A DNA stretch of 64,000 nt, from assembly GCA_026003475.1 (NCBI GenBank), contig BPHJ01000001.1, forward strand, positions 1,922,098-1,986,097, read 5' to 3'. The first letter of the stretch is position 1. The number at the start of each line of letters is the position of its first letter. Below are positions 4,633-54,373 of this stretch, in pieces. The stretch comes from Candidatus Kapaibacterium sp. GTDB lineage: Bacteria > Bacteroidota > Ignavibacteria > Kapaibacteriales > NICIL-2. A program made the position numbers and the translations under genes. The notes under the pieces were generated by a model, which saw only the letters and a program-made list of their open reading frames with translations, ran no database searches and was not told where the DNA came from.

Positions 4633-6242
4633 GCTCGGGCAATTCGGCGCTGGCGCACGCCCCACACAAGAAGGGTTCCCCCAGCTACCAGCACCATCCC
4701 GATTGGTAGCCAGTCTCCGGCGCGGACGTACAACGTCTGCTCGTGCTGCGGCACAACCGTTCCCGCAAGCGCGACCGCAACCCGTGCTGGGGCTCGCTGT
4801 ACCACACTTCCCAACGGCGAAATGAATCCACTGATGCCGCTGTTGGTACACCGAACAACCGGTCGCCGCGTTTCGATGGCACGCATCTGCGCAATGGCAA
4901 AATGCTGGTCGGGTCCGGGCGTGCCATCATACCATGCATCGTTGGTGATGACCGCCAACACATCAGCACCCCGGCGGACGTAGTCAGCACAGTAGTCCGG
5001 GTAGATGCTCTCGATGCAAATCATCACTCCCAGTCGAAGGAGCGTATCGCTGCCTCGCTGAAGGGGAAGCACTGTCGCTCCCGGACCTTTTGCCCAACTG
5101 GAAATGCCGACACCCCACTGGAGCATGCGCGCTAAGGCAGGAAATGCATCCGAAAATGGCATGTACTCACCGAACGGCGTCAGCCGTGATTTGCGATGCA
5201 TCGGGAAGCGCTCAGCATTCGGCGTAACGAGCACGGCCGCATTGTACGCGCGCAGTGGACGGTAGCCTTCGACGTCGGCAAAGCCGGTCACCACGGCAGT
5301 TCCGGTGCTGTCGCACCACCGTTGAATCCGTTCCAGCAGAGGCGAACCGGTGGCATCGAGGAGATTGACGGGCAGTGCGGTCTCGCTCCAGAGGGCAAGG
5401 TCGAATCGTGTGGTGCGCCGCAGCGAATCCTGGAGCGCCAGGTGCTGTTCGAGCATTGGACCCACGTCGGCATATCCCCACTTGCGCCAGGGGTTGATGT
5501 TCGGTTGCACAACGGCGATCCGGTAGGGCGTCGAGCTGGAGGGTGAATATTCCATCAATCGCAGCACGCCATAGAGCAGCGGCACTCCTACCACCGCCAC
5601 CATCCATGCCCCCAATTGGAGCGCTCCCTCCAGTGGCGACCGACTGAGTACGTTCTGGCTCATGGCATGGCAAATCCAGCCGTAAATCACCGCATTGAGC
5701 GCGATCACAACGGCACTGACTCCCCAAACGCCTGTGATGTCGGCAATCTGCACCAGTGCACTGCTCCGCAGTTGGGTGTACCCAAGCGCCAACCATGGGT
5801 AGCTCAAATCCCCGAGGGAATGGAGCCATTCGATGCCAACCTGGAGCGCTACCATTACCACAAGCGCTGCCGATAGCGGGAATGCTCGCTTGCGCAACAG
5901 TGCATAGGCAGCAAGCGACGGGAGCAAAAACAGCGGATGGACAAGCCACAGCACCGCTCCTGCAACCATTAGGTACGGATCGGTTTCCTTTTGCCAACTC
6001 ATCACCCACCAATTGGCCGCCCCGTGCCATGCCCACGCGAAGGCATACAGCAAGCCAAACCACCGTTTCTTCTGCTCCACTGCCCGATCCAAGAGCGCCA
6101 GCATTGGAACAAATGCGACCCACGCCAGCGGTCCCAGCACCGTCGGCGGATATGCCGCCCCAAGAGCAGCACCAGCAACCAGCGCAACACCCCATCGGTA
6201 TCGCCAGAGCATCCCATCCCAAAGTGCAGGTGGCTGCTTCAT
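4629..6242 (-). CDS. lnt: Apolipoprotein N-acyltransferase
   Basis: [31 protein letters not shown] motifs. Confidence 0.95.
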
Positions 6243-33843: not shown

Positions 33844-36770
33844 ATCCTGGCTCAATCGTTCGCTGCCGCAATCGTGAATGGGTCCTTTTGCCCTCCGAGA
33901 CAGATGATGTTTGGGTGCTTCGGCCCCTTGCCGGGACGACCGAAGACATCGTCAAGGTGCACCGGGGCTTGGCGAATCTCGTCGGCTACGACCTCCCGTT
34001 CGAGCGCGTCACGTCGGCTTCGTTTCCGCTGCCCACACCCGACGACGTCGCCGATGCCGCCAGTGCGCATCTGCTCTGGCAAGCCGCGCGCCTGACGCTG
34101 CGCGAGGGCGCCACCCCGTTCCGCTCGCTCGGCCGCATCTCGATTCGCCCGCGCACCTATCAGTTTGTGCCGCTGCTCATGGCGCTCAGGCTCGACCCGG
34201 TGCGCCTTTTCATCGCGGATGATGTGGGCGTGGGCAAGACGATCGAGGCACTGCTCATCGCCCGGGAACTGCTCGATCGCGGCGAGATCCGACGCTTCTG
34301 CGTCCTCTGCCCGCCGTACTTGTGCGAGCAGTGGGCCAAGGAGCTGGCCGAGAAGTTCAACCTGGAGCCGGTAGTCATTCGCTCCGGCACCGTGAGCCAA
34401 CTGGAGCGTCAGGTGCCGCCCGGCAAAAGCATCTACGAGCACTTCCCGATCCAGGTCGCCAGCATTGACTTCGTCAAAACTGACCGCAACCGTCACCAGT
34501 TTCTCCAGTTCTGCCCTGAACTCGTGATCGTGGACGAGGCACACGGCGCGGCGGCCGCGCAAGGACGCGCTCAACAGGAACGCCACGCGCTCTTGCGCGA
34601 GGTGGCAAAACGGCCGGAACGGCACTTGATTCTGCTGACCGCCACACCGCACTCGGGCATCGAAGAGGCGTTCCGCTCGCTGCTCGGCTTGCTGCGGCCC
34701 GAGTTCGAGAACTGGAATATCGCGGATCTCGACGAAGAGCAGCGCAGCGAACTTGCCCGCCACTTCGTCCAGCGCACGCGGCGGGACATCGAGCACGGCT
34801 GGGAAGCGGGCAGCGTCTTTCCGCAGCGCGAATCACTTGACGTGACGTACGACCTCTCGGACCACTACCGTCAGCTCTTCGAGCACACCTACGCGTTCTG
34901 CTCCGAGATCGTGCGCACCGGCGAACGGCTCGAAGAACGCAAGCGGCGCGTGCGTTACTGGGGAGCGTTGGCCCTTTTGCGCTGCGTGATGTCGAGCCCT
35001 GCGGCGGCCATCGCAGCGCTCGCCAACCGGCAGGGCACAGTCGCGTTCGAGGACGAAGACGAACCCGAGTTTCGCCCCTTCGTGTTCGAGTTGGCGGACG
35101 AGCGCACCGACGATGAATCCCCCACGCCGCCGGTGGAAGCCGCCGAGGCCACCCTCGCCGAGACCGAGCGCCGTCGGCTGCGCGATCTCGCACAGCTCGC
35201 CACTGAGCTTTGTGGGCCGACGCACGACACCAAACTCGCCCGCGCCATAGAACTCGTGCAACAACTCCTCGAGGAAGGCTTCCACCCGATCCTCTGGTGC
35301 CGCTATGTGGCTACGGCTGAATACCTCGCTGAGCATTTGCGCACAGCACTACCTGCCGATGCCCAGGTGGTCTGCGTGACCGGCCGCCTCGGCGACGACG
35401 AGCGCCAAGCCAAGATCGAGGAGATCGACCCCGACCGCCCCCGCGTGCTCGTGGCAACCGACTGCCTCTCGGAAGGGGTCAATCTGCAGGAGAAATTCAC
35501 GGCGGTCGTGCACTACGACCTCCCCTGGAACCCGAACCGGCTCGAGCAGCGCGAAGGGCGCGTGGACCGCTACGGGCAGCCCGCCAAGCGGGTCAAGGCG
35601 GTGCGGTTCTTCGGGCGGGACAACCCCGTCGACGGCGTGGTCATCGAGGTGCTTCTCGACAAGGCGCGGGAGATCCACCGCACGCTGGGTACGCATGTGC
35701 CCGTTCCCGAAGAAAGCGAAAGCGTCACCCAGGCTGTGCTCGAGGCGCTTTTCCTGCGCGGCGGGCGGCGGGCGGCCACCCAGCAGCTCGTGCTCGACCT
35801 TGGTGTTCCGCAGGTGACCGAACTCCACCGCCGTTGGGAGCGCGATGCCGAACGCGAGCGCATCAACCGCACCCGCTTTGCCCAGCGGACGCTCAAGCCC
35901 GAAGAAGTCCAGCGTGAACTCGAAGCCACCGACGCCGTGCTCGGGGATCCGGGTGCGGTGCGCGAATTTGTGCTCACAGCAGCCCAGCGCGTGGGCTTGT
36001 CCATCACGATAGATCGCCGTCCCGGCGTCTATCGCGTGGCCGTATCGCCTGAGGCACTGGCGACTGTACCCGAACCGATCCGCCTTGCCCTCTCTCACCA
36101 TTCGCTATTCGCTATTCGCCATTCGCCCTCCCACTGGCTCATCAGCTTCGACTCGCCCACGCCCGAAGGCGCCGAGTACCTCGGCCGCAATCACCGCGTT
36201 GTGGCCGCGCTCGCGCGTATCCTCTTCGAGGAGGCGCTGCGGGGAGCGAGTAGCGAGTGGCGAGCGGCGAGTAGTGACAAGAGAGTCAGCCGGTGTGGCG
36301 TTATCCGCACACGTGCAGTGGCAACTCTCACAACGATCCTTTTGCTTCGCGTGCGTTACCTGATTGAGCAACCGCAGACAAGGCCGCTGCTTTCCGAAGA
36401 GGTACTCGTGGTGGGGTATCGCGATCGTGGGAAGAACCAGGTGGAGTGGCTCGAGGATAGCATGGCGCTGCAGCTGCTCGCTGAGGCAAAGCCTGATGCC
36501 AACATTCCGATGACGGAGAAGCGGGAGTTGGTGGAGCGAGCGCTCCGCGCACTAAGTGAATGGCGAATCGCGAATGGCGAATGGGGTAAAGAACATCCGA
36601 TCCAGCGAGCGATCCGGGATCGGGTGGCCCAACGCGCCAGCGAGTTGGCCGATGCTCACAAGCGCATTCGTCAAGCCGTGTCGCTGCGCGTGCGAGGGCT
36701 CGAGGTCAAGCCGCAGTTCCCGCCAGATCTTATAGGAATTCTCGTGTTGCAACCCATGGTGCAGCCATGA
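33840..36770 (+). CDS. SNF2-family helicase (DISARM DrmD-like)
   Basis: IADDVGVGKT, DEAH, LTATPHSG, YDLPWNPNRLEQREGRVDRYGQ. Confidence 0.9.
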   Translation: MNPGSIVRCRNREWVLLPSETDDVWVLRPLAGTTEDIVKVHRGLANLVGYDLPFERVTSASFPLPTPDDVADAASAHLLWQAARLTLREGATPFRSLGRISIRPRTYQFVPLLMALRLDPVRLFIADDVGVGKTIEALLIARELLDRGEIRRFCVLCPPYLCEQWAKELAEKFNLEPVVIRSGTVSQLERQVPPGKSIYEHFPIQVASIDFVKTDRNRHQFLQFCPELVIVDEAHGAAAAQGRAQQERHALLREVAKRPERHLILLTATPHSGIEEAFRSLLGLLRPEFENWNIADLDEEQRSELARHFVQRTRRDIEHGWEAGSVFPQRESLDVTYDLSDHYRQLFEHTYAFCSEIVRTGERLEERKRRVRYWGALALLRCVMSSPAAAIAALANRQGTVAFEDEDEPEFRPFVFELADERTDDESPTPPVEAAEATLAETERRRLRDLAQLATELCGPTHDTKLARAIELVQQLLEEGFHPILWCRYVATAEYLAEHLRTALPADAQVVCVTGRLGDDERQAKIEEIDPDRPRVLVATDCLSEGVNLQEKFTAVVHYDLPWNPNRLEQREGRVDRYGQPAKRVKAVRFFGRDNPVDGVVIEVLLDKAREIHRTLGTHVPVPEESESVTQAVLEALFLRGGRRAATQQLVLDLGVPQVTELHRRWERDAERERINRTRFAQRTLKPEEVQRELEATDAVLGDPGAVREFVLTAAQRVGLSITIDRRPGVYRVAVSPEALATVPEPIRLALSHHSLFAIRHSPSHWLISFDSPTPEGAEYLGRNHRVVAALARILFEEALRGASSEWRAASSDKRVSRCGVIRTRAVATLTTILLLRVRYLIEQPQTRPLLSEEVLVVGYRDRGKNQVEWLEDSMALQLLAEAKPDANIPMTEKRELVERALRALSEWRIANGEWGKEHPIQRAIRDRVAQRASELADAHKRIRQAVSLRVRGLEVKPQFPPDLIGILVLQPMVQP
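36099..36126. repeat. Heptamer array, 4 x [C/T]ATTCGC
   Basis: Read directly; translates HSLFAIRHSP. Confidence 0.95.
36246..36273. repeat. Heptamer array, 4 x GCGAG[T/C][A/G]
   Basis: Read directly; translates ASSEWRAAS. Confidence 0.85.
36556..36583. repeat. Heptamer array, 4 x G[C/T]GAAT[G/C]
   Basis: Read directly; translates SEWRIANGEW. Confidence 0.9.
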
Positions 36771-39700
36771 GCCTGTTTCCCGGAATCCGTATCGAAGGCG
36801 GCCTGCTCGGGCCGGACACCCTGGACCAGATTCTCACCGGCGAGCTTCCCGGGCAGAGGCTGTCCGACTTTGGCCTCGATGGGCGACGAACGCTCACTGA
36901 CGAAATCGCCAGCGCCTTTGCCGATGCGCGCGCCCAGTGGGAGGTGCTCAAGCGCCGGCTGGAGCGTCTGCCGGAGTCAGACGTGGCCACCTCGGTCACG
37001 CGCGATACGTGGGTGGTCCCGTTCCTGAGCCTCTTAGGCTACGAGCTCCGCTACAACCCGCGCGCCTACGAGCTGGACGGCGCGACCTTCGCCATCTCCC
37101 ACCGAGCGGGGGAGGCTGAAGACGCCCCGCCGGTTCACATCGTCGGTGCCCGGCAAGAGCTGGGGCGCGTTGCCCCTACCGGTCGCCCGAGGCTGGCCCC
37201 GCACTCCCTGGTCCAGGAGTTCTTGAACCGCAGCGAGCACCTCTGGGGCATCGCCACCAACGGGCTCACCCTGCGCCTGCTACGCGACTCGACCTACGTC
37301 CGCCGCCAAGCTTACGTGGAGTTCGACCTCCAGCAGATTTTCGAGGAGCAGCGCTTCAACGACTTTGCCGTTCTCTACCGCCTCCTGCACCGCAGCCGCC
37401 TGCCCCGCTCGGCCGCGGAGGCGCGGGATTGCTTGCTCGAGCAGTACCACCAGCACGCCGTCGAGCAGGGCGGGCGGGTACGCGATCGCCTCCGCGACGG
37501 CGTCGAGGAGTGCATCAAGCGCCTGGCCAACGGCTTTCTGGCACACCCGGACAATGGCGAGCTGAGAGCGCGAATAGCGAATAGCGAATGGCGAATAGAA
37601 GGTCAGACTGAAGCACCATTCGCTATTCGCCATTCGCCATTCGCTCAAGACTTCTACCGGCAGCTCCTGCGCCTGGTCTATCGCTTCTTGTTCCTCCTCG
37701 TTTCCGAAGATCGCGGGCTCATCAGCGCCGAGCCGCTCTACCGCGAGCACTATGGCGTGGCCCGGCTGCGACGCCTCTGCGAACGACGAAGCAACTACAC
37801 CGAGCACGACGACCTCTGGTGCAGCCTGAGAGTGCTGTGGAAGGTGCTCTCCGACGAGCGACTGGCCGGCCTCCTGGGGGCTGCGCCCTTGAACGGAGAA
37901 CTCTTTGCGCCTCTTGCACTGGACCACTGCACCATCACCAACCGCGACTTCCTCGAGGCATTCTGGCACCTGGCGTACTACCGCGAAACGCCTTCTGCGC
38001 CGCCCCGCCGAGTCAACTACGCCGCCCTGGATGTCGAAGAACTCGGCTCGGTCTATGAGAGCCTGCTAGATTACCACCCAGTGATCGAAGCGAATGGCGA
38101 ATGGCGAATAGCGAATGGCCTCAGGTTCGATTTGGTGTTCGGTTCGGAGCGCAAGAGCACGGGTTCGTACTACACGCCGCCGGAACTGGTCACCGAACTC
38201 ATCCGCTCAGCGCTGGAGCCGGTGATCGAAGAGCGACTGGCGGAAGCTAAGCGAATGGCGAATAGCGAATGGCGAATGGTGTCAAAAAACATCCGAGAGA
38301 AGTTCATCCATGAAGTCTTTCCAAGATTATCGCGACCTGGAGGTCTGGCAAAAGGCGATGCAGGTGGTCAAAAAGGTTTACCTGCTGACCAAGGACTTTC
38401 CCCCGTCGGAACTGTACGGCCTGACCAGCCAGATGCGACGAGCAGCCATCTCGATCCCGGCGAACATCGCCGAGGGCTGGGGACGCCGTTACACAGCGGA
38501 GTTCATCCAGTTTCTGCGTCAAGCGAACGGGAGCCGGACAGAGCTGGAGACACTTCTTCTCCTGAGCATGGAAGTCGGGCTGTGCCCTCAGGAGGAAGTA
38601 GCGTGTCCGATTCTGGAAGACCTTCAGCTCATCGGGAGGCAACTGAACAACTTGGAACGCAGCCTCCAACGGAGAAAGAACTCACCATAGCCTGGGAATC
38701 CACTCCATTCGCTATTCGCTATTCGCTATTCGCCCAGCACGCTCTGTTGAGCGTGCGTGTCCTCGATCCCGCCTGCGGCTCCGGCCACTTCCTGCTCGCT
38801 GCCGCCCGCCGGTTGGGGAAAGAGCTTGCACGCATCCGCACCGGCGAAGACGAACCCGCCCCGGAGCGGGTGCGCGAAGCGATCCGTGACGTTGTGGCGC
38901 ACTGCATCTACGGCGTGGACAAGAACCCGCTCGCCGTCGAGCTCTGCAAAGTCGCTCTGTGGCTTGAAGCCCACTGCTCGGGCAAGCCGCTGACGTTCCT
39001 CGACCACCGCATCCGCTGCGGCGATTCCCTCGTGGGGGTCTTCGACCTCGGCGTGCTTGAACGCGGCATCCCCGACGAGGCATTCACTCCCGCCGGCACC
39101 GACGCGAAAGAGACTGCGGGCCTCCTCAAAAAGCGCAACCGCACCGAGCGTCGCGATCTCGAGAGCGGGCAACTGCGCCTGCCGCTTGTGCCTGCGCACG
39201 TCGTGGACGCTTTGGGCAGGAAGCACCACGACATCGAAGCGATCGCCGACGACTCCCCCGCCGCCGTGCGCGAGAAAAAGAGTCGCTACGACCGCCTGCT
39301 GGCCGATCCTGAGCGGCTCCGCGTCGCCGAAGCCTGCGACCTCTGGACCGCCGCGTTCTTCCAGCGCTTTACGCCCGGGCTGGCCACATCGCCAGCCGCG
39401 ATCACCACGGACGGTGTGACCGATCGCCTCGCTGACCGAGCGCATCCCCAGGCGCTCGCCGCCGCACGGGCGCTTGCTGAGCACCACCGCTTCTTCCACT
39501 GGCCACTGGAGTTCCCCGAAGTTTTTCAGCGAATAGCGAATAGGGGGGAAAAAGAGCGAATAGCGAATAGCGAAGTGGCGAATAGCGGAGAAAGAGAGCG
39601 AATAGCGAATAGCGAAGTGGCGAATGGTGAAACCGATGACCCATTCGCTATTCGCCATTCGCCATTCGCCGAACCGCGCCATTCGCCATTCGCCGCTCCT

Positions 39701-41182
39701 ATTCGCCATTCCCCATTCGCCAACTCCGGCTTCGATGTGGTGCTCGGCAATCCCCCCTTCATGGGCGGGCTCAAAATCAGCGGTGCCCTTGGGGACAAGT
39801 ACCGCCACTGGCTGGAGGTGGCTTATGAGCCCTACGGCGGCACGGCGGACCTGTGCGCCGCTTTCTACCGCCGCGCCTACAGCCTGCTCAAGCCCGGCGG
39901 GCGCCTGGGCATGGTCGCCACCAACACCATCGGCCAGGGCGACACCCGCGAGAGCGGGCTCGCCGTGATCCTCCAAGAGGATGGCACCATCACCTTTGCC
40001 CGCCGCTTCATCAAGTGGCCCGGCGCCGCCAATGTGGAAGTGAATCTCGTCGCCCTCCACAAACCCCACCATTCGCCACTCGCCACTCACCATTCGCCAT
40101 TCGCCATTCGCCATTCGCCGATCCTCGATGGCCAACCTGTGGACTTCATCTCCTCCCGCCTCGATGCCGACCCCGAAGCTGAACCCAAACGCCTCCCGCA
40201 AAACGAAGGCAAGGCGTTCCAGGGCGACATCGTGCGCGGTATGGGCTTTGTGCTGGAGCCGGAGGAGGCGGAAGCGCTGCTGGCCAAAGACCCGCGCAAC
40301 GCCGACTGCCTTTTCCCCTATCTGAACGGCGAGGACCTGAACAGCCACCCGGAGCAAAAGCCCAGCCGCTACGTGATTTGCTTCCACGACTGGGACCTGA
40401 AGCGCGCATGTCAATACCCCGACCTGCTGCGCATTGTGGAAGAGAGGGTAAAGCCTGAGCGAGAGCGGCTCCGGGGACCGGGCGACAAGCGCAACCGCGA
40501 ATACTGGTGGCAGTTCGGCGCTTACCGCGCTGGCATGCGCCGCGCCATCATCCCCCTCAAGCGGGTGCTGGTGCGAAGCCGCGTGAGTGAGTTGCATGCG
40601 ATCGCATTTGTCCCAAAAGGGTACGTTTACGGCGATGCAACGGTCGCCTTCGCCTTCGACGACGACTACCACTTCGCCCTGCTGCAATCCAGCGTGCATG
40701 AGGTGTGGGTATGGCGGCAAGCATCCAGCCTTGAGTCGCGAAATCGCTATACGCCCACGGACTGTTTTGACACCTTTCCGTTTCCGCCGGGGGAGTATGA
40801 GCGAATAGCGAATAGCGAATGGCGAATAGCGAATAGCGAATGGCGAGTGGAGGAGATGCCGGAGGCGTTTCAGCGGGCGGCGCGGGTGGGAGCAGGGTAC
40901 CACGAGCACCGGCGGCAAATCATGCTTTCCCGCCAACTCGGGCTCACGAAAATCTACAACCTCTTTCACGACCCGGCCTGCCAGGATGCGGACATCCAGC
41001 GCCTGCGCGAGCTGCACGCCGAGATGGACCGCGCCATCCTGGCTTGCTACGGCTGGGAAGATGTAGATTTGCGTTATGATTTCTACCCCAACGATCGCGG
41101 GCAGATGCGCTACACCGTTGCGCCCGAGGCGCGGCGGGAGCTTCTGCGGCGGTTGATAGAGCTGAATTTGAGGCTTGCGTGA
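36767..41182 (+). CDS. Eco57I/MmeI-type N6-adenine methyltransferase (DrmMI-like/type IIG) with in-frame repeat inserts
   Basis: ERKSTGSYYTP, motif I VLDPACGSGHFL, motif IV FDVVLGNPPF, MmeI-like specificity region (YWWQF, RYTPTDCFDTFPFP). Confidence 0.92.
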   Translation: MSLFPGIRIEGGLLGPDTLDQILTGELPGQRLSDFGLDGRRTLTDEIASAFADARAQWEVLKRRLERLPESDVATSVTRDTWVVPFLSLLGYELRYNPRAYELDGATFAISHRAGEAEDAPPVHIVGARQELGRVAPTGRPRLAPHSLVQEFLNRSEHLWGIATNGLTLRLLRDSTYVRRQAYVEFDLQQIFEEQRFNDFAVLYRLLHRSRLPRSAAEARDCLLEQYHQHAVEQGGRVRDRLRDGVEECIKRLANGFLAHPDNGELRARIANSEWRIEGQTEAPFAIRHSPFAQDFYRQLLRLVYRFLFLLVSEDRGLISAEPLYREHYGVARLRRLCERRSNYTEHDDLWCSLRVLWKVLSDERLAGLLGAAPLNGELFAPLALDHCTITNRDFLEAFWHLAYYRETPSAPPRRVNYAALDVEELGSVYESLLDYHPVIEANGEWRIANGLRFDLVFGSERKSTGSYYTPPELVTELIRSALEPVIEERLAEAKRMANSEWRMVSKNIREKFIHEVFPRLSRPGGLAKGDAGGQKGLPADQGLSPVGTVRPDQPDATSSHLDPGEHRRGLGTPLHSGVHPVSASSEREPDRAGDTSSPEHGSRAVPSGGSSVSDSGRPSAHREATEQLGTQPPTEKELTIAWESTPFAIRYSLFAQHALLSVRVLDPACGSGHFLLAAARRLGKELARIRTGEDEPAPERVREAIRDVVAHCIYGVDKNPLAVELCKVALWLEAHCSGKPLTFLDHRIRCGDSLVGVFDLGVLERGIPDEAFTPAGTDAKETAGLLKKRNRTERRDLESGQLRLPLVPAHVVDALGRKHHDIEAIADDSPAAVREKKSRYDRLLADPERLRVAEACDLWTAAFFQRFTPGLATSPAAITTDGVTDRLADRAHPQALAAARALAEHHRFFHWPLEFPEVFQRIANRGEKERIANSEVANSGERERIANSEVANGETDDPFAIRHSPFAEPRHSPFAAPIRHSPFANSGFDVVLGNPPFMGGLKISGALGDKYRHWLEVAYEPYGGTADLCAAFYRRAYSLLKPGGRLGMVATNTIGQGDTRESGLAVILQEDGTITFARRFIKWPGAANVEVNLVALHKPHHSPLATHHSPFAIRHSPILDGQPVDFISSRLDADPEAEPKRLPQNEGKAFQGDIVRGMGFVLEPEEAEALLAKDPRNADCLFPYLNGEDLNSHPEQKPSRYVICFHDWDLKRACQYPDLLRIVEERVKPERERLRGPGDKRNREYWWQFGAYRAGMRRAIIPLKRVLVRSRVSELHAIAFVPKGYVYGDATVAFAFDDDYHFALLQSSVHEVWVWRQASSLESRNRYTPTDCFDTFPFPPGEYERIANSEWRIANSEWRVEEMPEAFQRAARVGAGYHEHRRQIMLSRQLGLTKIYNLFHDPACQDADIQRLRELHAEMDRAILACYGWEDVDLRYDFYPNDRGQMRYTVAPEARRELLRRLIELNLRLA
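37570..37644. repeat. 75-bp hairpin insert: 4 x GCGAAT[A/G], 19-nt spacer, 4 x [C/T]ATTCGC
   Basis: Read directly; in frame in the MTase. Confidence 0.95.
38090..38117. repeat. Solo heptamer array, 4 x GCGAAT[A/G]
   Basis: Read directly. Confidence 0.95.
38251..38733 (+). mobile_element. 483-bp intervening-sequence-like element: inverted heptamer arrays (38251-38278, 38706-38733) flanking a four-helix-bundle gene
   Basis: Four forward and four inverse units bound the nested gene; removal restores an MTase-like EERLAEANQHALLSVRVLDPACGSG; mobility is inferred. Confidence 0.7.
38310..38690 (+). CDS. Four helix bundle protein (23S rRNA IVS protein/TIGR02436 family, Avd-like), nested in the +1 frame of the MTase
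   Basis: YRDLEVWQKAM...FPPSELYGLTSQMRRAAISIPANIAEGWGR...FIQFLRQANGSRTELET family signature. Confidence 0.93.
   Translation: MKSFQDYRDLEVWQKAMQVVKKVYLLTKDFPPSELYGLTSQMRRAAISIPANIAEGWGRRYTAEFIQFLRQANGSRTELETLLLLSMEVGLCPQEEVACPILEDLQLIGRQLNNLERSLQRRKNSP
39529..39720. repeat. 192-bp compound hairpin insert of inverted heptamer arrays just before motif IV
   Basis: Forward GCGAATA blocks then inverse CATTCGC blocks; removal gives EFPEVFHNSGFDVVLGNPPF. Confidence 0.93.
40070..40118. repeat. Heptamer array, 7 x CA[T/C]TC[G/A]C
   Basis: Read directly. Confidence 0.95.
40801..40849. repeat. Heptamer array, 7 x GCGA[A/G]T[A/G]
   Basis: Read directly. Confidence 0.95.
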
Positions 41183-42171
41183 TGAAGGCCCGTAGTCGAG
41201 AGTTACTGGACCGTGCTATCGCGGCGATGGTCGCGGCCATCGAAATCTATAACAAGCCCGATTTCTCCTACCGGGCGGAATCGTTCGCGATCCTGGCGAC
41301 GAATGCCTGGGAATTGCTCCTGAAGGCCAAATGGCTCGCAGAGCACAACAACCGCATCTCCTGCCTGTACGTCCGTCAGGGAGGCGGCACGAAACGGAAG
41401 CGGATCAAGAAGACGGCGGCCGGGAACCCGATGACCCACAGCCTCGATTATCTGGCGAGCAAGCTTCGCGAGCAGGGAGCGCTGAACGAGCAGGCGTACC
41501 GTAACCTGAGGATTCTGAGCGAGTTCCGCGATTCGGCGGTGCATTTCTATCACCAGAATCCGCAGTTCGCGGAGCGACTGCAGGAAATCGGTGCGGCGGC
41601 AGTCAAGAACTTCAGCTCTGCGGCTCGGGAATGGTTCAAGGCCGAGCTCTCGCGGTACAACTTCTACCTCCTGCCCCTCGCCTTCGTATCGCCACTACAG
41701 TCAGCGGAGGGAGTCATACTCAGCGGTGAGGAGAAGCGGTTTCTGAAGTTCGTGAACGGGCTGAGTCAGGATGATCACGACCCCGCTTCGCCATATTCGG
41801 TTGCCGTGAATGTGGAGGTGCGGTTCGTTAAATCAAAGTCAGCCACCGCCGCCCCGGTAAGGATCACCACCGACCCAACGGCGCCCGCGGTCCGCCTGAC
41901 GGAGGAGCAGATAAGAGAAAAATACCCATGGGACTACGCGGAGCTAACGAAAAAGTGTCAGAAGCGCTATTCGAACTTCAAGGTTGACCGAGATTATCAT
42001 CGGTTGAGAAAGTCGCTGGAGTCGGACTTGCGATATGCGCACGTTCGCTTGCTCGATCCAGCGAAGCCGAACAGTCAGAAGAAGCTCTTTTTCAACCCCA
42101 ACATCCTGCAAGAATTCGACAAGCACTATGCCCCTAAAACAGACGGTGGCCGGGCGCAGACGCCTAATTAG
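41179..42171 (+). CDS. DUF3644-like protein (possible HEPN-like RxxxxH)
   Basis: AIEIYNKPDFSYRAESFAILATNAWELLLKA; RDSAVH. Confidence 0.75.
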   Translation: MMKARSRELLDRAIAAMVAAIEIYNKPDFSYRAESFAILATNAWELLLKAKWLAEHNNRISCLYVRQGGGTKRKRIKKTAAGNPMTHSLDYLASKLREQGALNEQAYRNLRILSEFRDSAVHFYHQNPQFAERLQEIGAAAVKNFSSAAREWFKAELSRYNFYLLPLAFVSPLQSAEGVILSGEEKRFLKFVNGLSQDDHDPASPYSVAVNVEVRFVKSKSATAAPVRITTDPTAPAVRLTEEQIREKYPWDYAELTKKCQKRYSNFKVDRDYHRLRKSLESDLRYAHVRLLDPAKPNSQKKLFFNPNILQEFDKHYAPKTDGGRAQTPN

Positions 42172-42232
42172 GCGACAGGGCGCGAGTGAGCATGAACGTG
42201 CTCAATTTCCATCCGTTGGTTTTTGACGTCTC

Positions 42233-42364
42233 CGCGACGCCGTGGCCTACATCCTGGACCAATTCCCCATCGTCCGGCGCAAGGATGAGGAGCGCTATGG
42301 CACGTATCGCACGAAGGAGATGATCCTGCAGCTCTACGATGCGATGCAGCATAGGCGGAGCTGA
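42233..42364 (+). pseudogene. Orphan 3' end of an Eco57I-type MTase, copy 1
   Basis: [43 protein letters not shown]. Confidence 0.8.
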
Positions 42365-42366
42365 GA

Positions 42367-42401
42367 AACTCCCCGCTCACCACTCACCACTCGCCGCTCG
42401 C
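42367..42401. repeat. Degenerate intergenic heptamer array (5 units, starts AACTCCC)
   Basis: AACTCCC CGCTCAC CACTCAC CACTCGC CGCTCGC. Confidence 0.85.
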
Positions 42402-42492
42402 CATTTTTGCCAGGCGGATGTCCTTCGGAAAAGAACGTTATTTTCGCCATGTGACCTTTACAGAAGGACACACGATTGCTAACCTGTCCGCC

Positions 42493-43815
42493 ATGGCATT
42501 GCACCCGATTCTGCAAGAAAAACTTGTCGCTGGCTTCGAGCCGGTCAGGCTCGAAGAGCTGACCCGAAGGGACGCACGGCTGCCTGCCATCAAGAACAAG
42601 GTCCATACAGTGCTCGGCATGCGGCGGGTCGGCAAAACCACCTTCTTGCGCCAGGTGCAGCAGGAACAGCAGCAGGCGCTTGCCCCAGAACGGGCGGTGT
42701 ACGTAAGCTTCGATGACGATCGTCTGGCGGACCTGCCGCTTTCGCAGCTCGATGCGCTCGTGGAGGAGTACTACCGCACGTTTCCCCATCTCCGTGGTCG
42801 CGAGCTCGTGTGGTGGTTTTTCGATGAGATACAGGTGGTTGCAGGCTGGGAGCGGTTCGTCCGGCGATTGATGGACACGGAAAAGGTGGCGGTGGTCGTT
42901 TCCGGTTCCTCAGCTCGTCTTCTCTCCCGCGAGGTCCATACTTCCTTGCGGGGCCGCGGATTTGAAACGGTTCTACGCCCCTTTAGCTTCCGCGAATTCC
43001 TTCGTCACCGGAACGAAGAGCCGACCAAACCCCTCGCGCGCCTGAGTGCGGCCGAGCGCTCGCTCATCGAGAAGCGCGTGCTCGAATATCTGCAGGTGGG
43101 TGGGTTCCCCGAGGCTCAGGGGTTGGATCTGCGCCTGCGCATTCAACTGCTGCAGAGTTATGTGGACACGCTGCTTCTGCGCGATGTGGTCGAGCGCTAC
43201 CAGGTGAGCCAGATCGCTGCGCTTCGCTCGATTACTCGGACTTGTCTGCGCAACCCGGCCGCGCTCCAGAGTGCGCACGCTCTCTACCGCGACCTCAAAT
43301 CCCAGGGGTATGCTGTTTCCAAAGACACGGTACACGCCCTTCTCGGATACCTGGTGGATGCCTTTTTGCTGACGCTTGTGCCGCTGGCGACGGACTCTGA
43401 ACGGCAGCGTAATGCCAATCCGCGCAAAATCTATCCTGCTGACCCAGGGCTGATTCATGCGTTCGATACGAGCGGTCGCGCTAATCTGGGGCGTGCCTTG
43501 GAAACAGCGGTGCTAAACGCCTTGGTCTCACAAGGGGCGGAGGTGGGCTATGTGAAGACTGATGAAGGATTCGAGGTAGATTTTCTCGCGCGCATCCCCG
43601 GCAAGAGGGAACTACTCATCCAGGTATGTGCGGACCCGACCCAGCCAGAGGTTCTCGAACGCGAAGTGCGTGCACTCGACGCAGCAGCTCGCACCCATCC
43701 TCGCGCCGAGCGGATTCTGATTGTGCTGACGCGAGACCAAGCAATTCAGGTGTCGCCCGGCACCATTCGGGTGTGTGCAGCATACGAATGGTTTCTGGAG
43801 GAAGATCTGTTCTAG
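42493..43815 (+). CDS. AAA_14 ATPase with DUF4143 C-terminal domain
   Basis: GMRRVGKT, FFDEIQ, SGSSA, GGFPE, KIYPADPG, EVDF. Confidence 0.9.
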   Translation: MALHPILQEKLVAGFEPVRLEELTRRDARLPAIKNKVHTVLGMRRVGKTTFLRQVQQEQQQALAPERAVYVSFDDDRLADLPLSQLDALVEEYYRTFPHLRGRELVWWFFDEIQVVAGWERFVRRLMDTEKVAVVVSGSSARLLSREVHTSLRGRGFETVLRPFSFREFLRHRNEEPTKPLARLSAAERSLIEKRVLEYLQVGGFPEAQGLDLRLRIQLLQSYVDTLLLRDVVERYQVSQIAALRSITRTCLRNPAALQSAHALYRDLKSQGYAVSKDTVHALLGYLVDAFLLTLVPLATDSERQRNANPRKIYPADPGLIHAFDTSGRANLGRALETAVLNALVSQGAEVGYVKTDEGFEVDFLARIPGKRELLIQVCADPTQPEVLEREVRALDAAARTHPRAERILIVLTRDQAIQVSPGTIRVCAAYEWFLEEDLF

Positions 43816-43908
43816 CCTTCGCTACCCTGTGACGTTGTTCGGTCGTAGTTCTTCATTGCCGATGAGCGGGCTCGGGTGCTCGTGGATCGCATGCCGCTGG
43901 AGTGGCCG

Positions 43909-44040
43909 CGCGATGCAGTGGCGTACATCCTGGACCAATTCCCCATCGTCTGCCGCAGGGACGAGGAGCGGTATGGCACCTACCGCACCAAGGAGACAAT
44001 CCATGCGCTCTACGATGCGATGCAGCATAGACGGAGCTGA
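43909..44040 (+). pseudogene. Orphan 3' end of an Eco57I-type MTase, copy 2
   Basis: [43 protein letters not shown]; 114/132 nt identical to copy 1. Confidence 0.8.
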
Positions 44041-44042
44041 GA

Positions 44043-44105
44043 AACTCCCCATTCGCCATTCGCCACTCGCCATTCGCTACTCGCCACTCCCCACTCGCCA
44101 CTCGC
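44043..44105. repeat. Intergenic heptamer array (9 units, starts AACTCCC)
   Basis: Read directly. Confidence 0.95.
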
Positions 44106-44118
44106 TAATTTTGCCCCA

Positions 44119-47100
44119 ATGCCAAGCATTCTCGACTTTCACGACAGCGTCCTCGGCGAGTACAGCGATTTTGTCCGCTCGTTTCTGCACATTGCCGACG
44201 AGCGCGTGCGGGAGTTTGTCGATCATGAGCTGCAGCACGGGCGGCATCTTTGGCCGGAGCCGATGGTGCAGATCAGTCCAGCCTACGCACGTGCGGCAGA
44301 TGTTGATCAGCTCGCCCAGCGCGGGGTACTCCATCCCGACACACAAGCGACGTTCCGGACTTCGAGTGGAGAACCGTTTGTGCTCTACCAGCACCAGGTC
44401 GAGGCATTCGAGCGAGTTTCGCAGCGCAGGAGCATCGTGGTCACGACTGGGACGGGTTCGGGGAAGAGTTTGTGCTACTTTTTGCCGATCCTCGACGAGA
44501 TCATGCGCAATCCAGTGCGGGACAAAACAGTAGCGCTGCTGGTGTACCCGATGAACGCGCTGGTCAATTCGCAGGTGGAGGCGCTCCAGCGTTGGAAGCG
44601 CGTCTTCGAGGAGTACACCGGGCGGACGTTTCCGGTGACGTTTGCCAAGTACACGGGAGAAACGACCGAGCAAGAGCGGAACGCGATGCGGGAGCAGCCG
44701 CCGCACCTCATCTTGACCAACTACATGATGGTGGAGCTGATGCTCGTGCGGCCGGAGGATCGGCGATTCCTCGATGCAGCAGGCGGTGGTTTGCGCTATG
44801 TGGTCTTCGACGAACTGCATACCTACCGCGGACGGCAAGGAGCAGACGTAGCGATGCTCATCCGACGGTTGAAGGCGCGTGCGGCAACGCCCGACGTTGT
44901 GCACATAGGCACTAGTGCGACGATGGTCTCGCAGCCGGGGGCGAGTGCTGCCGAGCGTCGGCAGGTCGTTGCGGAGTTCGCACGGCGTTTCTTCGGGCAT
45001 CCGTTTACGCCGGATGACGTCATCGAGGAAACGCTCCAGCTGCCATCGAACAGCAGAACGCCAGCGCCGGAGGAACTCCGCACTGCGATTGAGGCTGGAA
45101 GCCAGGAAGGGATGGAGACCTTGCTCGGATGGGTTGAGCAGTACTTAGGGGTCGTGGTCGCCGGTGATGGTCGGATCGAACGTCGGCCGCCGACGACGAT
45201 CGCCGAGGCTGCCGCTGCGCTTGCGCAGCTGACGGGCCAGTCCCTCGAACGCTGCGCCGATGCACTCAGCAAGACACTGGCCTGGGCGAGCAGCACGCGG
45301 CGTGTCGCGCTCAAGCTCCACCAGTTCATTGCCCAGAGTGGCGCAGTTCACGCAACGCTCGAAGCCGCCGATCGCCGCATGCTCACGCTCGACGAACAGA
45401 TACGCACAGCGGACAATCGGCTGTTGGCACCGCTCAAGTTCTGTCGCGTCTGCGGGCAGGAGTACTACTGCGTCGTCCTTGCGGATCGGTCCGTGCTCCC
45501 GCGGCATGACGGCCAGCAGGATTTGCCGCCTGAGGGGATGCCTGGCTACGCGATGCTCGCCGGCAATCCGCCCGTGGAGGATCCAGAGTTGCCCGAGGAG
45601 TGGCTCGATGCGCGAGGTTCGGTGAAGAAAGATTATCGCGACGCCGTGCCGCGCCTGCTCTGGGTTCGCCCCGACGGTCGCCTTGCCGAGAGCGGCAGCG
45701 ATCCGGAAGCAACGGCGATGTGGTTTCAGCCGGAGCCGTTTCTGCTCTGCATGCGCTGCGGCGAGTACTACAGTCGCCGCGAGAGCGAATTCCGCAAGCT
45801 TGTTTCGCTCTCGAGCGAGGCGCGGTCGAGTGCGACGACGGTCTTGGCAGTCTCAGTGTTGCGCCACGCAGCGCGCACGGGGGCAGTGCGCCAGAAGCTG
45901 CTGACGTTCACCGACAATCGCCAGGATGCATCGCTCCAGGCGGGGCACTTCAACGATTTCGTCCACGTGGCAGTTCTCCGCTCGGCGCTCATCAGTGCGC
46001 TTGAAGGGGCAGGCCCTGATGGGCTGACCCATGATGAAGTGGCAATGAAGACCGTCCGTGCTCTGCGAGGATCTGCGCAGGGGCTCCGGCTCTCCGACAT
46101 CGCCCAGAACGCGCAGCTTGACGAGAATTCACCGGCGGCAGAGCGCGTCTGGGAGACGTTCACGGAGTTGACCGAATATCGGCTTATCCAGGATTTGCGG
46201 CGTGGCTGGCGGATCGTGCAGCCGAATTTGGAAGACGTCGGGCTGCTGCGCATCGAGTACGACGGATTAGATCGGCTCTGCGCTCGCGACGAGATTTGGC
46301 AGGGGACGGTCCTTGCCGGAACTTCTGTGGAGGAGCGGCAGGCAATCCTCTGGCCGCTGCTGGAGTACTTGCGCACGCAGCTTGCGATCGCGGTGCGTGT
46401 TCTCGAACCGGACTACCAGCGGCAGCTTCGCCGCCGCGCTGAGCAATTGCTCGGTGAATTCTGGGGACTTGATCCCGACAGCGATGAGTTGCATCCGGCT
46501 AAGTACGCAGTGCTCCCGGGGACATCGGAACGCCAGCGGCCGAGCGGCATCAGTCTCAGTGAGCGGAGCAAGGTTTGGCGTTTCCTGCGCCGACGGCTCG
46601 GATTGGACAGTGCACAGCATCGGCCCGCACTGCAGGGACTGCTCGATGTGCTCACGCAACAGGGCTACCTCCGAAAGCTCGATCCGATCGGTGATCACCA
46701 ACGGTACCAGCTCGATGTAACGTGCATCCGGTGGGTACGCGGTGACGGTACGCCGCCACCACTGGATCCGCTCGGTGGCCGTCACACCACTACGCGTACA
46801 GAGGCGATGCGGCCGATCAACGAGTTTTTCCGGCGCTTTTACTGCGAATCTGCTGCTGAACTTGCTACGTTCGAAGCGCGAGAGCACACTGCTCAGGTTG
46901 TCGCCAGTGGTGAGCGCCAGCGGCGTGAACGTCGGTTCCGCTGGGAAGACAGCGACTCCACCAAGGAACGCGAGCTTGGGCGGCGACTGCCCTACTTGGT
47001 CTGCTCGCCGACGATGGAATTGGGCATAGACATTGCTGATCTCGACGTGGTACATCTGCGGAATGTGCCACCATCACCAGCTAACTACGCGCAGCGGAGC

Positions 47101-49173
47101 GGGCGCGCTGGGCGCAACGGGCAAGCAGGGGTAATCTACACGTACTGCGGTGCACGCAATCCGCACGACCGATACTTTTTCCGCAATCGCGCGCAGATGG
47201 TCGCCGGGAGCGTCCGTGCGCCGATGCTGGATTTGGCAAACGAGAATTTGTTGCGTGTGCACCTCCACGCTCTCTGGCTGGCGCGGGTAAACGTGCCGCT
47301 GGGGAATTCGATCGAGAACGTCCTCGACCTTGAGCGTGCGGACTTGCCGTTGCGGGAGGACGTCCGTTTAGCGATGGAGCTCTCCGAACGTGATCGCCGG
47401 TCGCTGCGGGAGGAAATGCACCGCGTGCTCAGCAGCGACCGCGACGACCTCGAGAGTGTGCCGTGGTTTGGGGACGATTGGATCGATCGCATCCTCAAGG
47501 AAGCGCCGGCCACCTTCGATCGCGCATTCGATCGGTGGCGGGAGCTGTACCGCGCTGCTAACGAGCAACTCAGACGCGCTCGCATTGAGGAGGACCGCTC
47601 CCGCAACGACCGCGAGGGGCAGCAGCGTGCCAAACGCCGGCAGGACGAAGCGCGCCGCCAACTCAATCTACTGCTGCAAGTCAACGTCGCGCGGGAGGAA
47701 GGCGAGTTCTACCCCTATCGCTACCTTGCCAGCGAAGGCTTCTTGCCCGGGTACAACTTCCCGGCGCTACCGGTGCGTGCCTGGATCCCGCGTGGCGACG
47801 GTGAGTTCATCGCTCGTCCGCGCGCTGTGGCGTTGCGTGAACTGGCGCCAGGGAATTTTCTCTACCACGAAGGCGCCAAGTGGGAAGTGGTCGGCTTTCA
47901 ACTTCCGCCCGGTGGGTTAGCCGAGCGGAAATTCACCGTGCGGCTCTGCCACCGATGCGGCGGATTTTCGCCATTCGATGCCGACCTCTGCGTGGTGTGT
48001 ACTGAGCGGTTGACGTTGGAGCAGAGCGAGATGGTGTCGCTGTTGGATATGCCGAACGTCCGCACACGTCGCCGCGAGCGCATTACCTCGAACGAAGAAG
48101 ATCGGCAGCGCTCGGGCTACAGCATCGAGACGTACTTCCAATTCAGCGTACTTCCAGGCAGCACGGAGGAAGCCACCGTCGAGCACGATGGCACCGCACT
48201 ATTCCACCTGACGTATGCCCCGGCAGCACGACTGTTGCGGATCAACCATGGCTGGCGCGCCGCAAGTAGCAAAGGATTCCGCATTGACCTCGACACCGGT
48301 GAGATCACCACAACCGATGCCTACGTGGATTCTCCCGCTGAGGATCGGCGCACAGTGGAGACGCTCCGCCTTGCGGTGCAGGATACGCAGAACATCCTCC
48401 TGGTACGCCCTGCCGATCCGGAACTCTTTTCGGACCGTGCCCTGGAAGTAAGCTTTCGCGCAGCACTGCTGCGTGGGCTGCAGCAAGCCTTCCAAGTGGA
48501 TGAAAGTGAACTCGCAGCCGAATGTATCGGGTGCAAGGAGCGTCGAGCGATTCTGCTCTACGAGAACAGCGAAGGTGGTTGCGGTGTGCTTCGGCGGTTA
48601 GTTGGTCAAGCCGATGCACTCGCGCTCGTTGCAAAAGAAGCACTCGCAGCGGCGCACTTCGATGAATCCGGCAACGATTGCATGCCGTCGTGCACGACGG
48701 CATGCTATGAGTGCCTGCTCAGCTACTCGAACCAACTCGATGCTCTCGTGCTCGATCGGCATCGGGTGCGGGAGTTGTTGGTCCGGCTTGCGCGTTCTTC
48801 GACGCTACGGGAATCAGCAGGTGGGCGCTCCTACCAGGAACAGTTCGCATGGCTGGCATCGCAGCTTGACCGGCGGTCGGAGTTAGAGCGGCGGTTCCTT
48901 CGGGAGCTTGCCAACGGTCGGTACCGCTTGCCGGACGATGCGCAGCGAAGCATTGCTCAGCCGCGCTGTGTAGCGGACTTTTTCTACGAACCGAATGTTC
49001 TGATTTTTTGCGACGGCACACCACACGACGAACCCCGACAGCACCAGCGGGATAACTTGCTGCGGGACCAGCTCATTGCATCAGGCTACCGTGTCATCAC
49101 GATCCGCTGGGATCAGTCGATCAGCGATCAAATTCGGCACTACCCCGACGTCTTCGGTCACAGAGCACAGTAA
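44119..49173 (+). CDS. DEAD/DEAH helicase with DUF1998 Zn domain and C-terminal DUF559/Vsr-like nuclease (DrmA-DrmB fusion-like)
   Basis: TGTGSGKS, DELH, YAQRSGRAGR, CTTACYECLLSYSNQ, ADFFY...FCDGTPH. Confidence 0.9.
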   Translation: MPSILDFHDSVLGEYSDFVRSFLHIADERVREFVDHELQHGRHLWPEPMVQISPAYARAADVDQLAQRGVLHPDTQATFRTSSGEPFVLYQHQVEAFERVSQRRSIVVTTGTGSGKSLCYFLPILDEIMRNPVRDKTVALLVYPMNALVNSQVEALQRWKRVFEEYTGRTFPVTFAKYTGETTEQERNAMREQPPHLILTNYMMVELMLVRPEDRRFLDAAGGGLRYVVFDELHTYRGRQGADVAMLIRRLKARAATPDVVHIGTSATMVSQPGASAAERRQVVAEFARRFFGHPFTPDDVIEETLQLPSNSRTPAPEELRTAIEAGSQEGMETLLGWVEQYLGVVVAGDGRIERRPPTTIAEAAAALAQLTGQSLERCADALSKTLAWASSTRRVALKLHQFIAQSGAVHATLEAADRRMLTLDEQIRTADNRLLAPLKFCRVCGQEYYCVVLADRSVLPRHDGQQDLPPEGMPGYAMLAGNPPVEDPELPEEWLDARGSVKKDYRDAVPRLLWVRPDGRLAESGSDPEATAMWFQPEPFLLCMRCGEYYSRRESEFRKLVSLSSEARSSATTVLAVSVLRHAARTGAVRQKLLTFTDNRQDASLQAGHFNDFVHVAVLRSALISALEGAGPDGLTHDEVAMKTVRALRGSAQGLRLSDIAQNAQLDENSPAAERVWETFTELTEYRLIQDLRRGWRIVQPNLEDVGLLRIEYDGLDRLCARDEIWQGTVLAGTSVEERQAILWPLLEYLRTQLAIAVRVLEPDYQRQLRRRAEQLLGEFWGLDPDSDELHPAKYAVLPGTSERQRPSGISLSERSKVWRFLRRRLGLDSAQHRPALQGLLDVLTQQGYLRKLDPIGDHQRYQLDVTCIRWVRGDGTPPPLDPLGGRHTTTRTEAMRPINEFFRRFYCESAAELATFEAREHTAQVVASGERQRRERRFRWEDSDSTKERELGRRLPYLVCSPTMELGIDIADLDVVHLRNVPPSPANYAQRSGRAGRNGQAGVIYTYCGARNPHDRYFFRNRAQMVAGSVRAPMLDLANENLLRVHLHALWLARVNVPLGNSIENVLDLERADLPLREDVRLAMELSERDRRSLREEMHRVLSSDRDDLESVPWFGDDWIDRILKEAPATFDRAFDRWRELYRAANEQLRRARIEEDRSRNDREGQQRAKRRQDEARRQLNLLLQVNVAREEGEFYPYRYLASEGFLPGYNFPALPVRAWIPRGDGEFIARPRAVALRELAPGNFLYHEGAKWEVVGFQLPPGGLAERKFTVRLCHRCGGFSPFDADLCVVCTERLTLEQSEMVSLLDMPNVRTRRRERITSNEEDRQRSGYSIETYFQFSVLPGSTEEATVEHDGTALFHLTYAPAARLLRINHGWRAASSKGFRIDLDTGEITTTDAYVDSPAEDRRTVETLRLAVQDTQNILLVRPADPELFSDRALEVSFRAALLRGLQQAFQVDESELAAECIGCKERRAILLYENSEGGCGVLRRLVGQADALALVAKEALAAAHFDESGNDCMPSCTTACYECLLSYSNQLDALVLDRHRVRELLVRLARSSTLRESAGGRSYQEQFAWLASQLDRRSELERRFLRELANGRYRLPDDAQRSIAQPRCVADFFYEPNVLIFCDGTPHDEPRQHQRDNLLRDQLIASGYRVITIRWDQSISDQIRHYPDVFGHRAQ

Positions 49174-50956: not shown

Positions 50957-51031
50957 TTTTGGCATCGAAGCATGCGCAGAGAGCAGTAGCCACTTAGCAC
51001 ATTGCCAGATGCATGGCGCAGTCGAACCTCT

Positions 51032-54373
<3,342 letters not shown>

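Follow-up and report, generated by a model that had tools for sequence, protein, structure and literature searches.

The methyltransferase gene of a predicted defence operon in Candidatus Kapaibacterium sp. (genome GCA_026003475.1) carries hairpins built of tandem heptamers, which share their repeat family with a PF05635 gene cassette lying in the same gene. The elements are contained in a 64,000-nucleotide (nt) stretch of contig BPHJ01000001.1 (1,922,098 to 1,986,097), referred to here as the window and numbered from its first letter. Two gene-less hairpins are in question, hairpin 1 at 37570..37644 (+, 75 nt) and the composite hairpin 2 at 39529..39720 (+, 192 nt). Both lie within the gene for an N6-adenine methyltransferase of 1471 amino acids (36767..41182, +; DrmMI/PglX-like, Eco57I/MmeI family), whose single unbroken frame spans all of the inserts. 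The explanation that we favour, and think probable without being confident of it, is that the hairpins are operon-borne, translated inserts related to the PF05635 cassette, which evolve through slippage, through the loss of an arm, through exchange within the gene, and through being gained or precisely lost, and which have no required role in the enzyme. Judging from the sequence, they are most likely translated, as extra and probably disordered stretches of loop (RIANSEW.../...HSPFAIR), and would then be retained in both the RNA and the protein.

Both inverted arrays had been noticed from the letters of the window (the sequence-only reading), and direct reading confirms them. In hairpin 1, a forward arm of four GCGAATR units (37570-37598) and a reverse arm of four reverse-complement units (37616-37645) enclose a loop of ~20 nt, and the whole is translated as RIANSEWRIEGQTEAPFAIRHSPFA. 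Hairpin 2 consists of three forward blocks (39529-39617), a 14-nt loop, and three reverse blocks (39641-39720); it ends five codons (NSGFD) 5′ of the VVLGNPPF motif, with its final base inside the N986 codon. The gene-carrying cassette (38251..38733, +, 483 nt) lies ~600 nt from the gene-less hairpins and is composed of a forward arm (38251-38279), the PF05635 gene (38310-38690), and a reverse arm (38703-38735). Hairpins 1 and 2 have their arms alone in common, and their loops show no clear likeness to the inner ends of the cassette beyond GGTG after the last unit. Each array comprises 3 to 7 units of 7 nt, a length not divisible by 3, within an open reading frame (ORF). The pattern GCGAATRGCGAAT, with at most one mismatch, has 47 matches in the window against 0.29 expected, a number reached by 0 of 100 shuffles. 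Folding of the RNA, proposed as a check in the sequence-only reading, gives strong hairpins of -40.8 kcal/mol for 37570-37644 (z -5.3) and -91.3 kcal/mol for 39529-39720 (z -7.2), with 0 of 200 shuffles as stable in either case.

Neither the six arrays nor the nested gene interrupts the methyltransferase ORF, which is likewise unbroken in most array-bearing homologues. A forward unit ending in A produces TAG in one phase; TAG-forming units account for 0 of 42 units in this dangerous phase and for 55 of 114 in the other phases. The PF05635 gene is read in frame +1 relative to the host gene (the host being +2 counted from the PF05635 frame). The host frame is stop-free in 20 of 21 PF05635 genes of metagenome loci, including all 20 embedded ones; the exception, L058, lies outside the methyltransferase. 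It is also open in all three embedded copies found in relatives, giving 23 of 23 embedded copies overall. In the remaining shifted frame, no embedded copy is free of stops (1-7 each), and of four further copies that are not embedded, two have stops in the host-type frame. The PF05635 frame itself, intact in the window, contains one or two stops in 7 of the 23 embedded copies beyond that of the window (6 of 19 copies in metagenome loci, namely L003, L007, L010, L013, L045, and L051, together with L200 from a relative). The host frame is therefore better kept than that of the nested gene. Inserts kept stop-free in the host frame argue against intron- or intein-like removal, because an element removed from the RNA would not need an open frame.

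The lengths of the 75-, 192-, and 483-nt elements are all multiples of 3, and all three begin as nnG CGA AT. (at codon position 3) and end as TTC GCn (at codon position 2), as read from the sequence at the outset. This shared codon phase is real, yet it need not be special. With the A/G letters that they carry, the 37570 and 39529 arrays can be free of stops in the observed phase only, and the 38251 array in two phases. Among 48 distinct forward arrays, starts fall 26, 19, and 3 times on codon positions 3, 1, and 2, against 22.5, 15.5, and 10 expected from stop avoidance alone. Stop avoidance thus suffices to explain the phase, and a special insertion rule is not needed.

The repeats belong to the mobile operon, with which they travel, and are no part of the repeats native to the host genome. 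In this single-contig genome of 2.16 Mb, window positions 36098-44084 contain every one of the 15 exact arrays and of the 10 period-7 runs, and a degenerate three-unit pattern has all 26 of its genome matches inside 8 kb, compared with 0 for a reversed control pattern. Arrays are found in three of 41 lineage genomes, always in the same operon. In relative G007, nine matches occur within 11 kb about its operon copy and none outside the operon; in relative G003, a single contig of 8.6 kb has eight matches and also bears the gene for the DruE-like helicase, at 90% identity. Distribution of the operon within the lineage is patchy, with close homologues in 3 of 40 relatives (58-68% identity), and its G+C content is 60-67% versus 56% for the genome. 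GCGAATR arrays are also found outside this operon type, in at least 120 stretches from many phyla in a scan of species genomes; among 80 of these loci that were examined, a PF05635 gene lies at most 25 nt from the array in three and this methyltransferase is present in none. A HIP1/cyanobacterial origin was considered and rejected, GCGATCGC occurring 163 times in the genome, just a few-fold above a rough expectation. An 849-residue protein labelled as from a Pirellulaceae metagenome-assembled genome (P0042) is 98% identical to the first 54% of the methyltransferase, inserts included, which reflects either a very recent inter-phylum transfer or a binning error.

The nested ORF at 38310-38690 belongs to PF05635, “23S rRNA IVS protein” (E 5.1e-36), and is the sole copy in the genome. 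Relatives of this family include Avd, a protein of diversity-generating retroelements. The two arms are of the same unit type in 13 of 16 hairpins and in all 7 cassettes. Over 13 loci, after six duplicate or repeat-only loci were dropped, the distance from cassette arms to further arrays is 0.88 mismatches within a locus and 1.27 between loci (permutation p ~0.005). In homologue P0029, a cassette with an internal deletion stands gene-less, as 102 residues, at the cassette site. In locus L048 (5932-10581), the PF05635 cassette occupies another site and is accompanied by two hairpins that lack a gene; the three elements have GGGGART arms and keep the frame. The L048 methyltransferase has the same N-terminal two thirds and an NPPW motif, with a different C-terminal module. 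The hairpins at 37570 (site 1) and 39529 (site 3) are alike, loop included, within each of three homologues (P0002, 23 of 25 residues; P0004, 19 of 21; P0020, 26 of 29), which speaks for copying or conversion among the sites of a single gene. The proposal that the hairpins are gene-less relatives of the gene-carrying element is supported as far as a common repeat family and a deleted cassette go; MITE-like (miniature inverted-repeat transposable element) transposition is not supported.

The orientation of the cassette gene is that of the methyltransferase in 24 of 24 copies, the window counted. An inversion switch was rejected for this reason, no recombinase being seen. In L058, the non-embedded PF05635 gene (5530-6010) has GAGAGG-type heptamer arms and lies between the helicase and methyltransferase genes, and the methyltransferase of the same locus has site 1 and site 3 hairpins with GAGAG-rich arms of a different period.

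Further arrays in the window escaped the sequence-only reading, which listed two besides the cassette; both of those are real, but three unpaired arrays in the methyltransferase gene and four in or near neighbouring genes were missed. In the methyltransferase gene, a forward array read ANGEWRIANG lies at site 2 (38089..38119, +), a reverse array (HHSPLATHHSPFAIRHSP) at site 5 (40067..40123, -), and a forward array (ERIANSEWRIANSEWRVE) at site 6 (40799..40850, +), so that three of the six array sites are without a local pairing partner. Over a length of 30 nt, the site 2 array matches the complement of the hairpin 1 reverse arm (37616-37645) at 100%. The upstream DrmD/BrxHII-like helicase gene contains arrays at 36098-36129 (-), at 36240-36280 (+, with GCGAGTR units), and at 36556-36590 (+). 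The fourth array, at 44049..44084 (-), lies just 5′ of the DruE-like helicase gene and has a counterpart at the equal place in relatives G003 and G007.

Homologues were compared by means of 121 proteins, comprising the query and the best 120 of the homologues listed. Heptamer-type peptides (RMANSEW, RVASGEW, HSPFAIR, HSPLATH) are found in 46 of the 121, often at matching positions, and the array-bearing homologues come from several phyla. Period-7 arrays are present in 35 of 78 metagenome loci, and the 105 in-gene arrays of the analysed loci fall at about nine coordinates. Removal of 39529-39720 yields ...EVF HNSG FDVVLGNPPF, the compact spacing anticipated before motif IV. Both anchors could be placed in 100 homologues, of which 69 have this spacing of exactly four residues at site 3, and intermediates are few. 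At the DNA level, 21 of 41 copies have 12 nt at this site and 12 are filled with 66-204 nt, every length being divisible by 3. Every filled insert at site 3 folds as a hairpin. These fillings belong to at least four unrelated families, one of them gene-carrying: heptamer arrays, a GAGAG-rich repeat (L015/L058), a non-repetitive hairpin (L020/L041), and a CCCTCTCCC/GGGAGAGGG palindrome, which is short in P0031 and P0073. In G007 (L200/L206), site 3 holds a ~590-nt insert in which CCCTCTCCC...GGGAGAGGG palindromes flank an ORF that presumably resembles a DUF559-type endonuclease, and the methyltransferase resumes in a different frame. On a FastTree phylogeny of 61 proteins (four short rows dropped, insert columns removed), site 3 requires at least 15 state changes over the 58 tips scored. 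Contigs of four DNA runs, from other organisms, also show an empty site 3 (joint 39519>39727, with ~15 other letters between) and length variants; their flanks are shorter than 30 nt, and they were not used as evidence.

The remaining sites are less uniform. At site 1, the anchors lie 36 to 198 nt apart, varying by multiples of three; some forms are decayed and others expanded, and the boundaries are ragged. The loops that hold hairpins 1 and 2 thus both vary among homologues. The sequence-only reading counted ragged boundaries, explained by slippage growth alone, against its own proposal; among homologues the empty and filled states are sharp at site 3 and the boundaries at 37570 are ragged, so that on this point its interpretation is supported at the former site and not at the latter. 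Taken as a whole, that interpretation is partly supported. At site 2, a full hairpin is present in one homologue, P0017. Site 5 has the reverse arm in most homologues, the forward arm in seven, and a full hairpin in one, while site 6 has one 21-nt unit in nearly all homologues. The unpaired arrays are best read as half-hairpins; growth in the opposite direction is also possible.

Changes in unit number can be seen between two near-identical alleles, L052 and L074 (98.4-99.6% identity along 4.7 kb). One indel of 14 nt (two units) lies in the right arm of the cassette and one of 7 nt (one unit) in the site 6 array; either shifts the frame, the latter in L074 relative to L052. A further 1-nt indel lies elsewhere. 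A third locus, L005, has a frame change inside its site 3 array. The frame-shifting unit-number differences are seen in the homologues L052 and L074, not in this genome.

The methyltransferase matches PF07669, PF20473, PF20466, and PF02384 in Pfam and is called DrmMI by PADLOC (E 2.8e-225); its nearest solved structure is that of MmeI (5HR4, E 5.5e-11). An antisense ORF of 763 codons (38726-41017, -) runs across the 3′ half of the gene and is probably a by-product of G+C-rich coding sequence. An SNF2 helicase gene (DrmD/DpdE/BrxHII-like according to Pfam and PADLOC) lies 5′ of the methyltransferase gene, with an ATGA overlap, and a DruE-like (YprA family) helicase of 1684 amino acids is called by PADLOC at 44119-49173. 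PADLOC thus places a BrxHII/DrmD-like helicase, a PglX/DrmMI-like methyltransferase, and a YprA-family helicase together at one locus. In section 5 of Bell et al. 2025, the ARMADA type I layout begins with a helicase-methylase pair, and the gene order here matches it. By gene content and order, and not by phylogeny, the operon fits an ARMADA type I / DISARM class 1-like system. Between the methyltransferase and the DruE-like helicase (41179-43815) are two small candidate defence genes, PDC-S19/DUF3644 and PDC-S01 (AAA_14 + DUF4143). A second SNF2 helicase gene (51002-54373; PADLOC HmaA/DrmD/BrxHII-like, E 1e-181) lies 2 kb past the operon, in a region that looks like a defence island.

We propose that the two stretches are gene-less members of a family of heptamer-armed hairpins, of which the PF05635 cassette would be the gene-carrying form. 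Arrays would lengthen and shorten by slippage in whole 7-nt units, with only 21-nt steps persisting in working genes and steps of 7 or 14 nt giving frameshifted alleles. Loss of one arm would leave an unpaired array, and exchange or copying between sites of one gene would keep units alike across a locus. Repeated gain or precise loss would take place at a few tolerant sites, among which the loop before motif IV is a hot spot used by unrelated hairpin elements too. Most likely, the inserts ride along with the gene as selfish or near-neutral passengers. As side effects, they would make the methyltransferase prone to on/off frameshifts and would form long mRNA duplexes that are possible RNase III substrates.

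Several observations weigh against this proposal. The TAG comparison is partly circular, as the longest open frames were chosen, and the loci are related, so that its p-value is overstated. The count of at least 15 state changes takes the gene tree to be valid for so short a stretch, and would come out too high if alleles had recombined. The single 7-residue unit at site 6 resembles conserved protein and is degenerate even in Chloroflexus-type homologues, which suggests that some arrays may have grown in place from coding sequence. The arrays of the window are near-perfect and the same sites are kept to ~55% protein identity. A purely neutral passenger might be expected to decay, and some function (RNA processing, regulation, or switching) may therefore exist. 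An AlphaFold2 model of residues 664-1133, built from a 21-row alignment, has a mean predicted local distance difference test score of 60.7 (25-55 in the insert and 33-62 in the catalytic core after it), and is too weak round the catalytic core to place the insert as a surface loop.

Were there such a function, the hairpins could act as RNA elements, with 22-30-bp mRNA stems cut by RNase III or bound by the four-helix protein, setting the level of methyltransferase or freeing the PF05635 message, and translation merely tolerated. The strong folds, the persistence of stems in homologues despite differing unit sequence, the conservation of sites across deep divergence, and the RNase III gene present in the genome all agree with this, as does the Coxiella intervening sequence (IVS) of like build, with heptameric arm repeats and an RNase III cut inside the stem, in the account given by PMC4990558. 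We nonetheless regard it as unlikely, since one-armed arrays are common at the same sites (half of the sites here), since cleavage without rejoining would destroy the message, and since the precise absence of hairpins in close relatives implies that the enzyme and operon work without them. The R position, moreover, tracks coding constraint and not pairing, so that the stem has a mismatch about every 7 nt. A function of another kind would be that of selected contingency switches, the gain or loss of one 7-nt unit turning the methyltransferase and the defence system off or on within a population. Homopolymer tracts are another route to such variation in known phase-variable genes. A unit length that is not a multiple of 3, the near-identical alleles L052 and L074 with their one- and two-unit differences, each frame-shifting, and the frame change in L005 are what such switches would produce. 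A single switch would be enough, however, and the gene has at least six arrays; mixed A/G units reduce the slippage rate, and the inverted arrangement is unneeded for switching. We consider selected switching doubtful. A reading that joins the two functions, in which the cassette is a frame-preserving mobile unit in a mobile defence operon, with one frame coding for its four-helix protein and a second left open to the host, seeding gene-less hairpins at a few conserved loops by copying or conversion, and the arrays serve as both reversible on/off switches and RNA processing sites for an ARMADA methyltransferase, strikes us as rather improbable. On that reading, the operon and not the genome would carry a self-contained repeat system.

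The evidence on site boundaries bears on a different alternative, in which slippage and fold-back copying built the hairpins where they now stand, out of ordinary coding sequence, with no historical link to the cassette and with unit likeness due to gene conversion only. The ragged boundaries and variable lengths of site 1 are in keeping with such growth, as is the coincidence of the site 6 unit with a conserved peptide, and unpaired arrays could be precursors and not remnants. In-place growth accounts poorly for the sharp empty state of site 3, with its few intermediates, or for the at least four unrelated hairpin sequences that fill it, one of them gene-carrying, and P0029 shows a cassette becoming a gene-less hairpin; we give this alternative little credence. 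Inverted ends and small size (75 and 192 nt) recall classic transposase-moved MITEs. The 10-nt flanks of the three elements have no common direct repeat, and thus no target-site duplication is seen. The genome has no copies beyond the operon and no transposase is apparent, the parent cassette encoding a PF05635 four-helix protein that is not a known transposase, and the arms are variable tandem arrays without defined termini. Two inserts do adjoin catalytic motifs I and IV, a siting that the sequence-only reading likened to that of inteins and introns. The analogy is not supported as regards removal after transcription or translation. Pfam reveals no Hint or other intein domain in the methyltransferase, the inserts, 25 and 64 residues of repeat peptide, are too small for inteins, and Rfam gives no intron, with no family match up to E = 1 save a chance microRNA hit. 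Selection against stops within the inserts also counts against removal. Transposase-moved, intein-like, and intron-like inserts are all very improbable here, and we retain the reading of the hairpins as translated, operon-borne relatives of the PF05635 cassette.

Partial precedents for these inserts exist. In the portions of the literature on which we draw, 23S rRNA IVSs with an S23p/PF05635 ORF resemble them in having a long stem of complementary ends, an optional four-helix-bundle ORF in the loop, and ORF-less forms. The present inserts differ in that they lie in a protein-coding gene and not in an rRNA helix, are in frame and open for translation, and have both arms wholly made of repeats; RNase III excision here would break the message. 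For Coxiella burnetii, the relevant section of PMC4990558 describes an IVS whose stem, 28 bp long, is cut by RNase III, whose heptameric repeats stand in tandem in numbers that differ from strain to strain, and whose ORF decays. The Rickettsia palindromic elements (RPE), as characterized in part of PMC10969869, are likewise short palindromes in frame in coding genes and translated as extra peptides, as is predicted here. By the same account, RPE are dispersed over many unrelated genes and have defined ~150-bp sequences, whereas the present family consists of variable tandem heptamers in one mobile operon and has a gene-carrying form (PMC10969869). Heptameric repeats of Xanthomonas and Nostoc, as presented in sections of PMC4692102, share the tandem 7-nt units, often in convergent inverted stem-loop pairs, with type kept between species and length changing. 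Those repeats are described there as lying mainly between genes, with coding regions under-represented among their locations, and are discussed as G-quadruplex formers, in contrast to GCGAATR units inside ORFs (PMC4692102). Finally, phase-variable pglX and repeat-containing restriction-modification genes, as treated in parts of PMC11341690 and PMC9881135, provide cases of PglX/Eco57I-family defence methyltransferases with internal repeats able to change the reading. The cases described in these sources involve programmed inversions and a recombinase, whereas in the present operon no recombinase is seen and switching would follow from frameshifted alleles (PMC11341690, PMC9881135).

We found no description of such hairpin inserts in protein genes in a literature search whose scope left most subscription journals and supplements outside. 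The window adds repeats confined to a mobile operon, a loop before motif IV that is a hot spot for several hairpin families, and naturally occurring alleles that differ by slippage. Genes of this kind are easily mis-annotated, given the nested gene, the low-complexity insert peptides, and the apparent frameshifts, and assemblies tend to break at the arrays.

If confirmed, the hairpins would represent a repeat family owned by a mobile operon and not by a genome, which is unusual among bacterial hairpin repeats. They would also tie together the long-unexplained rRNA intervening sequences with a PF05635 gene, the in-frame palindromes of the Rickettsia type, and heptamer microsatellites, a three-way link made testable by the many natural empty and filled alleles of one gene. 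In anti-phage systems of this recently described class, the inserts would generate on/off variation at little cost.

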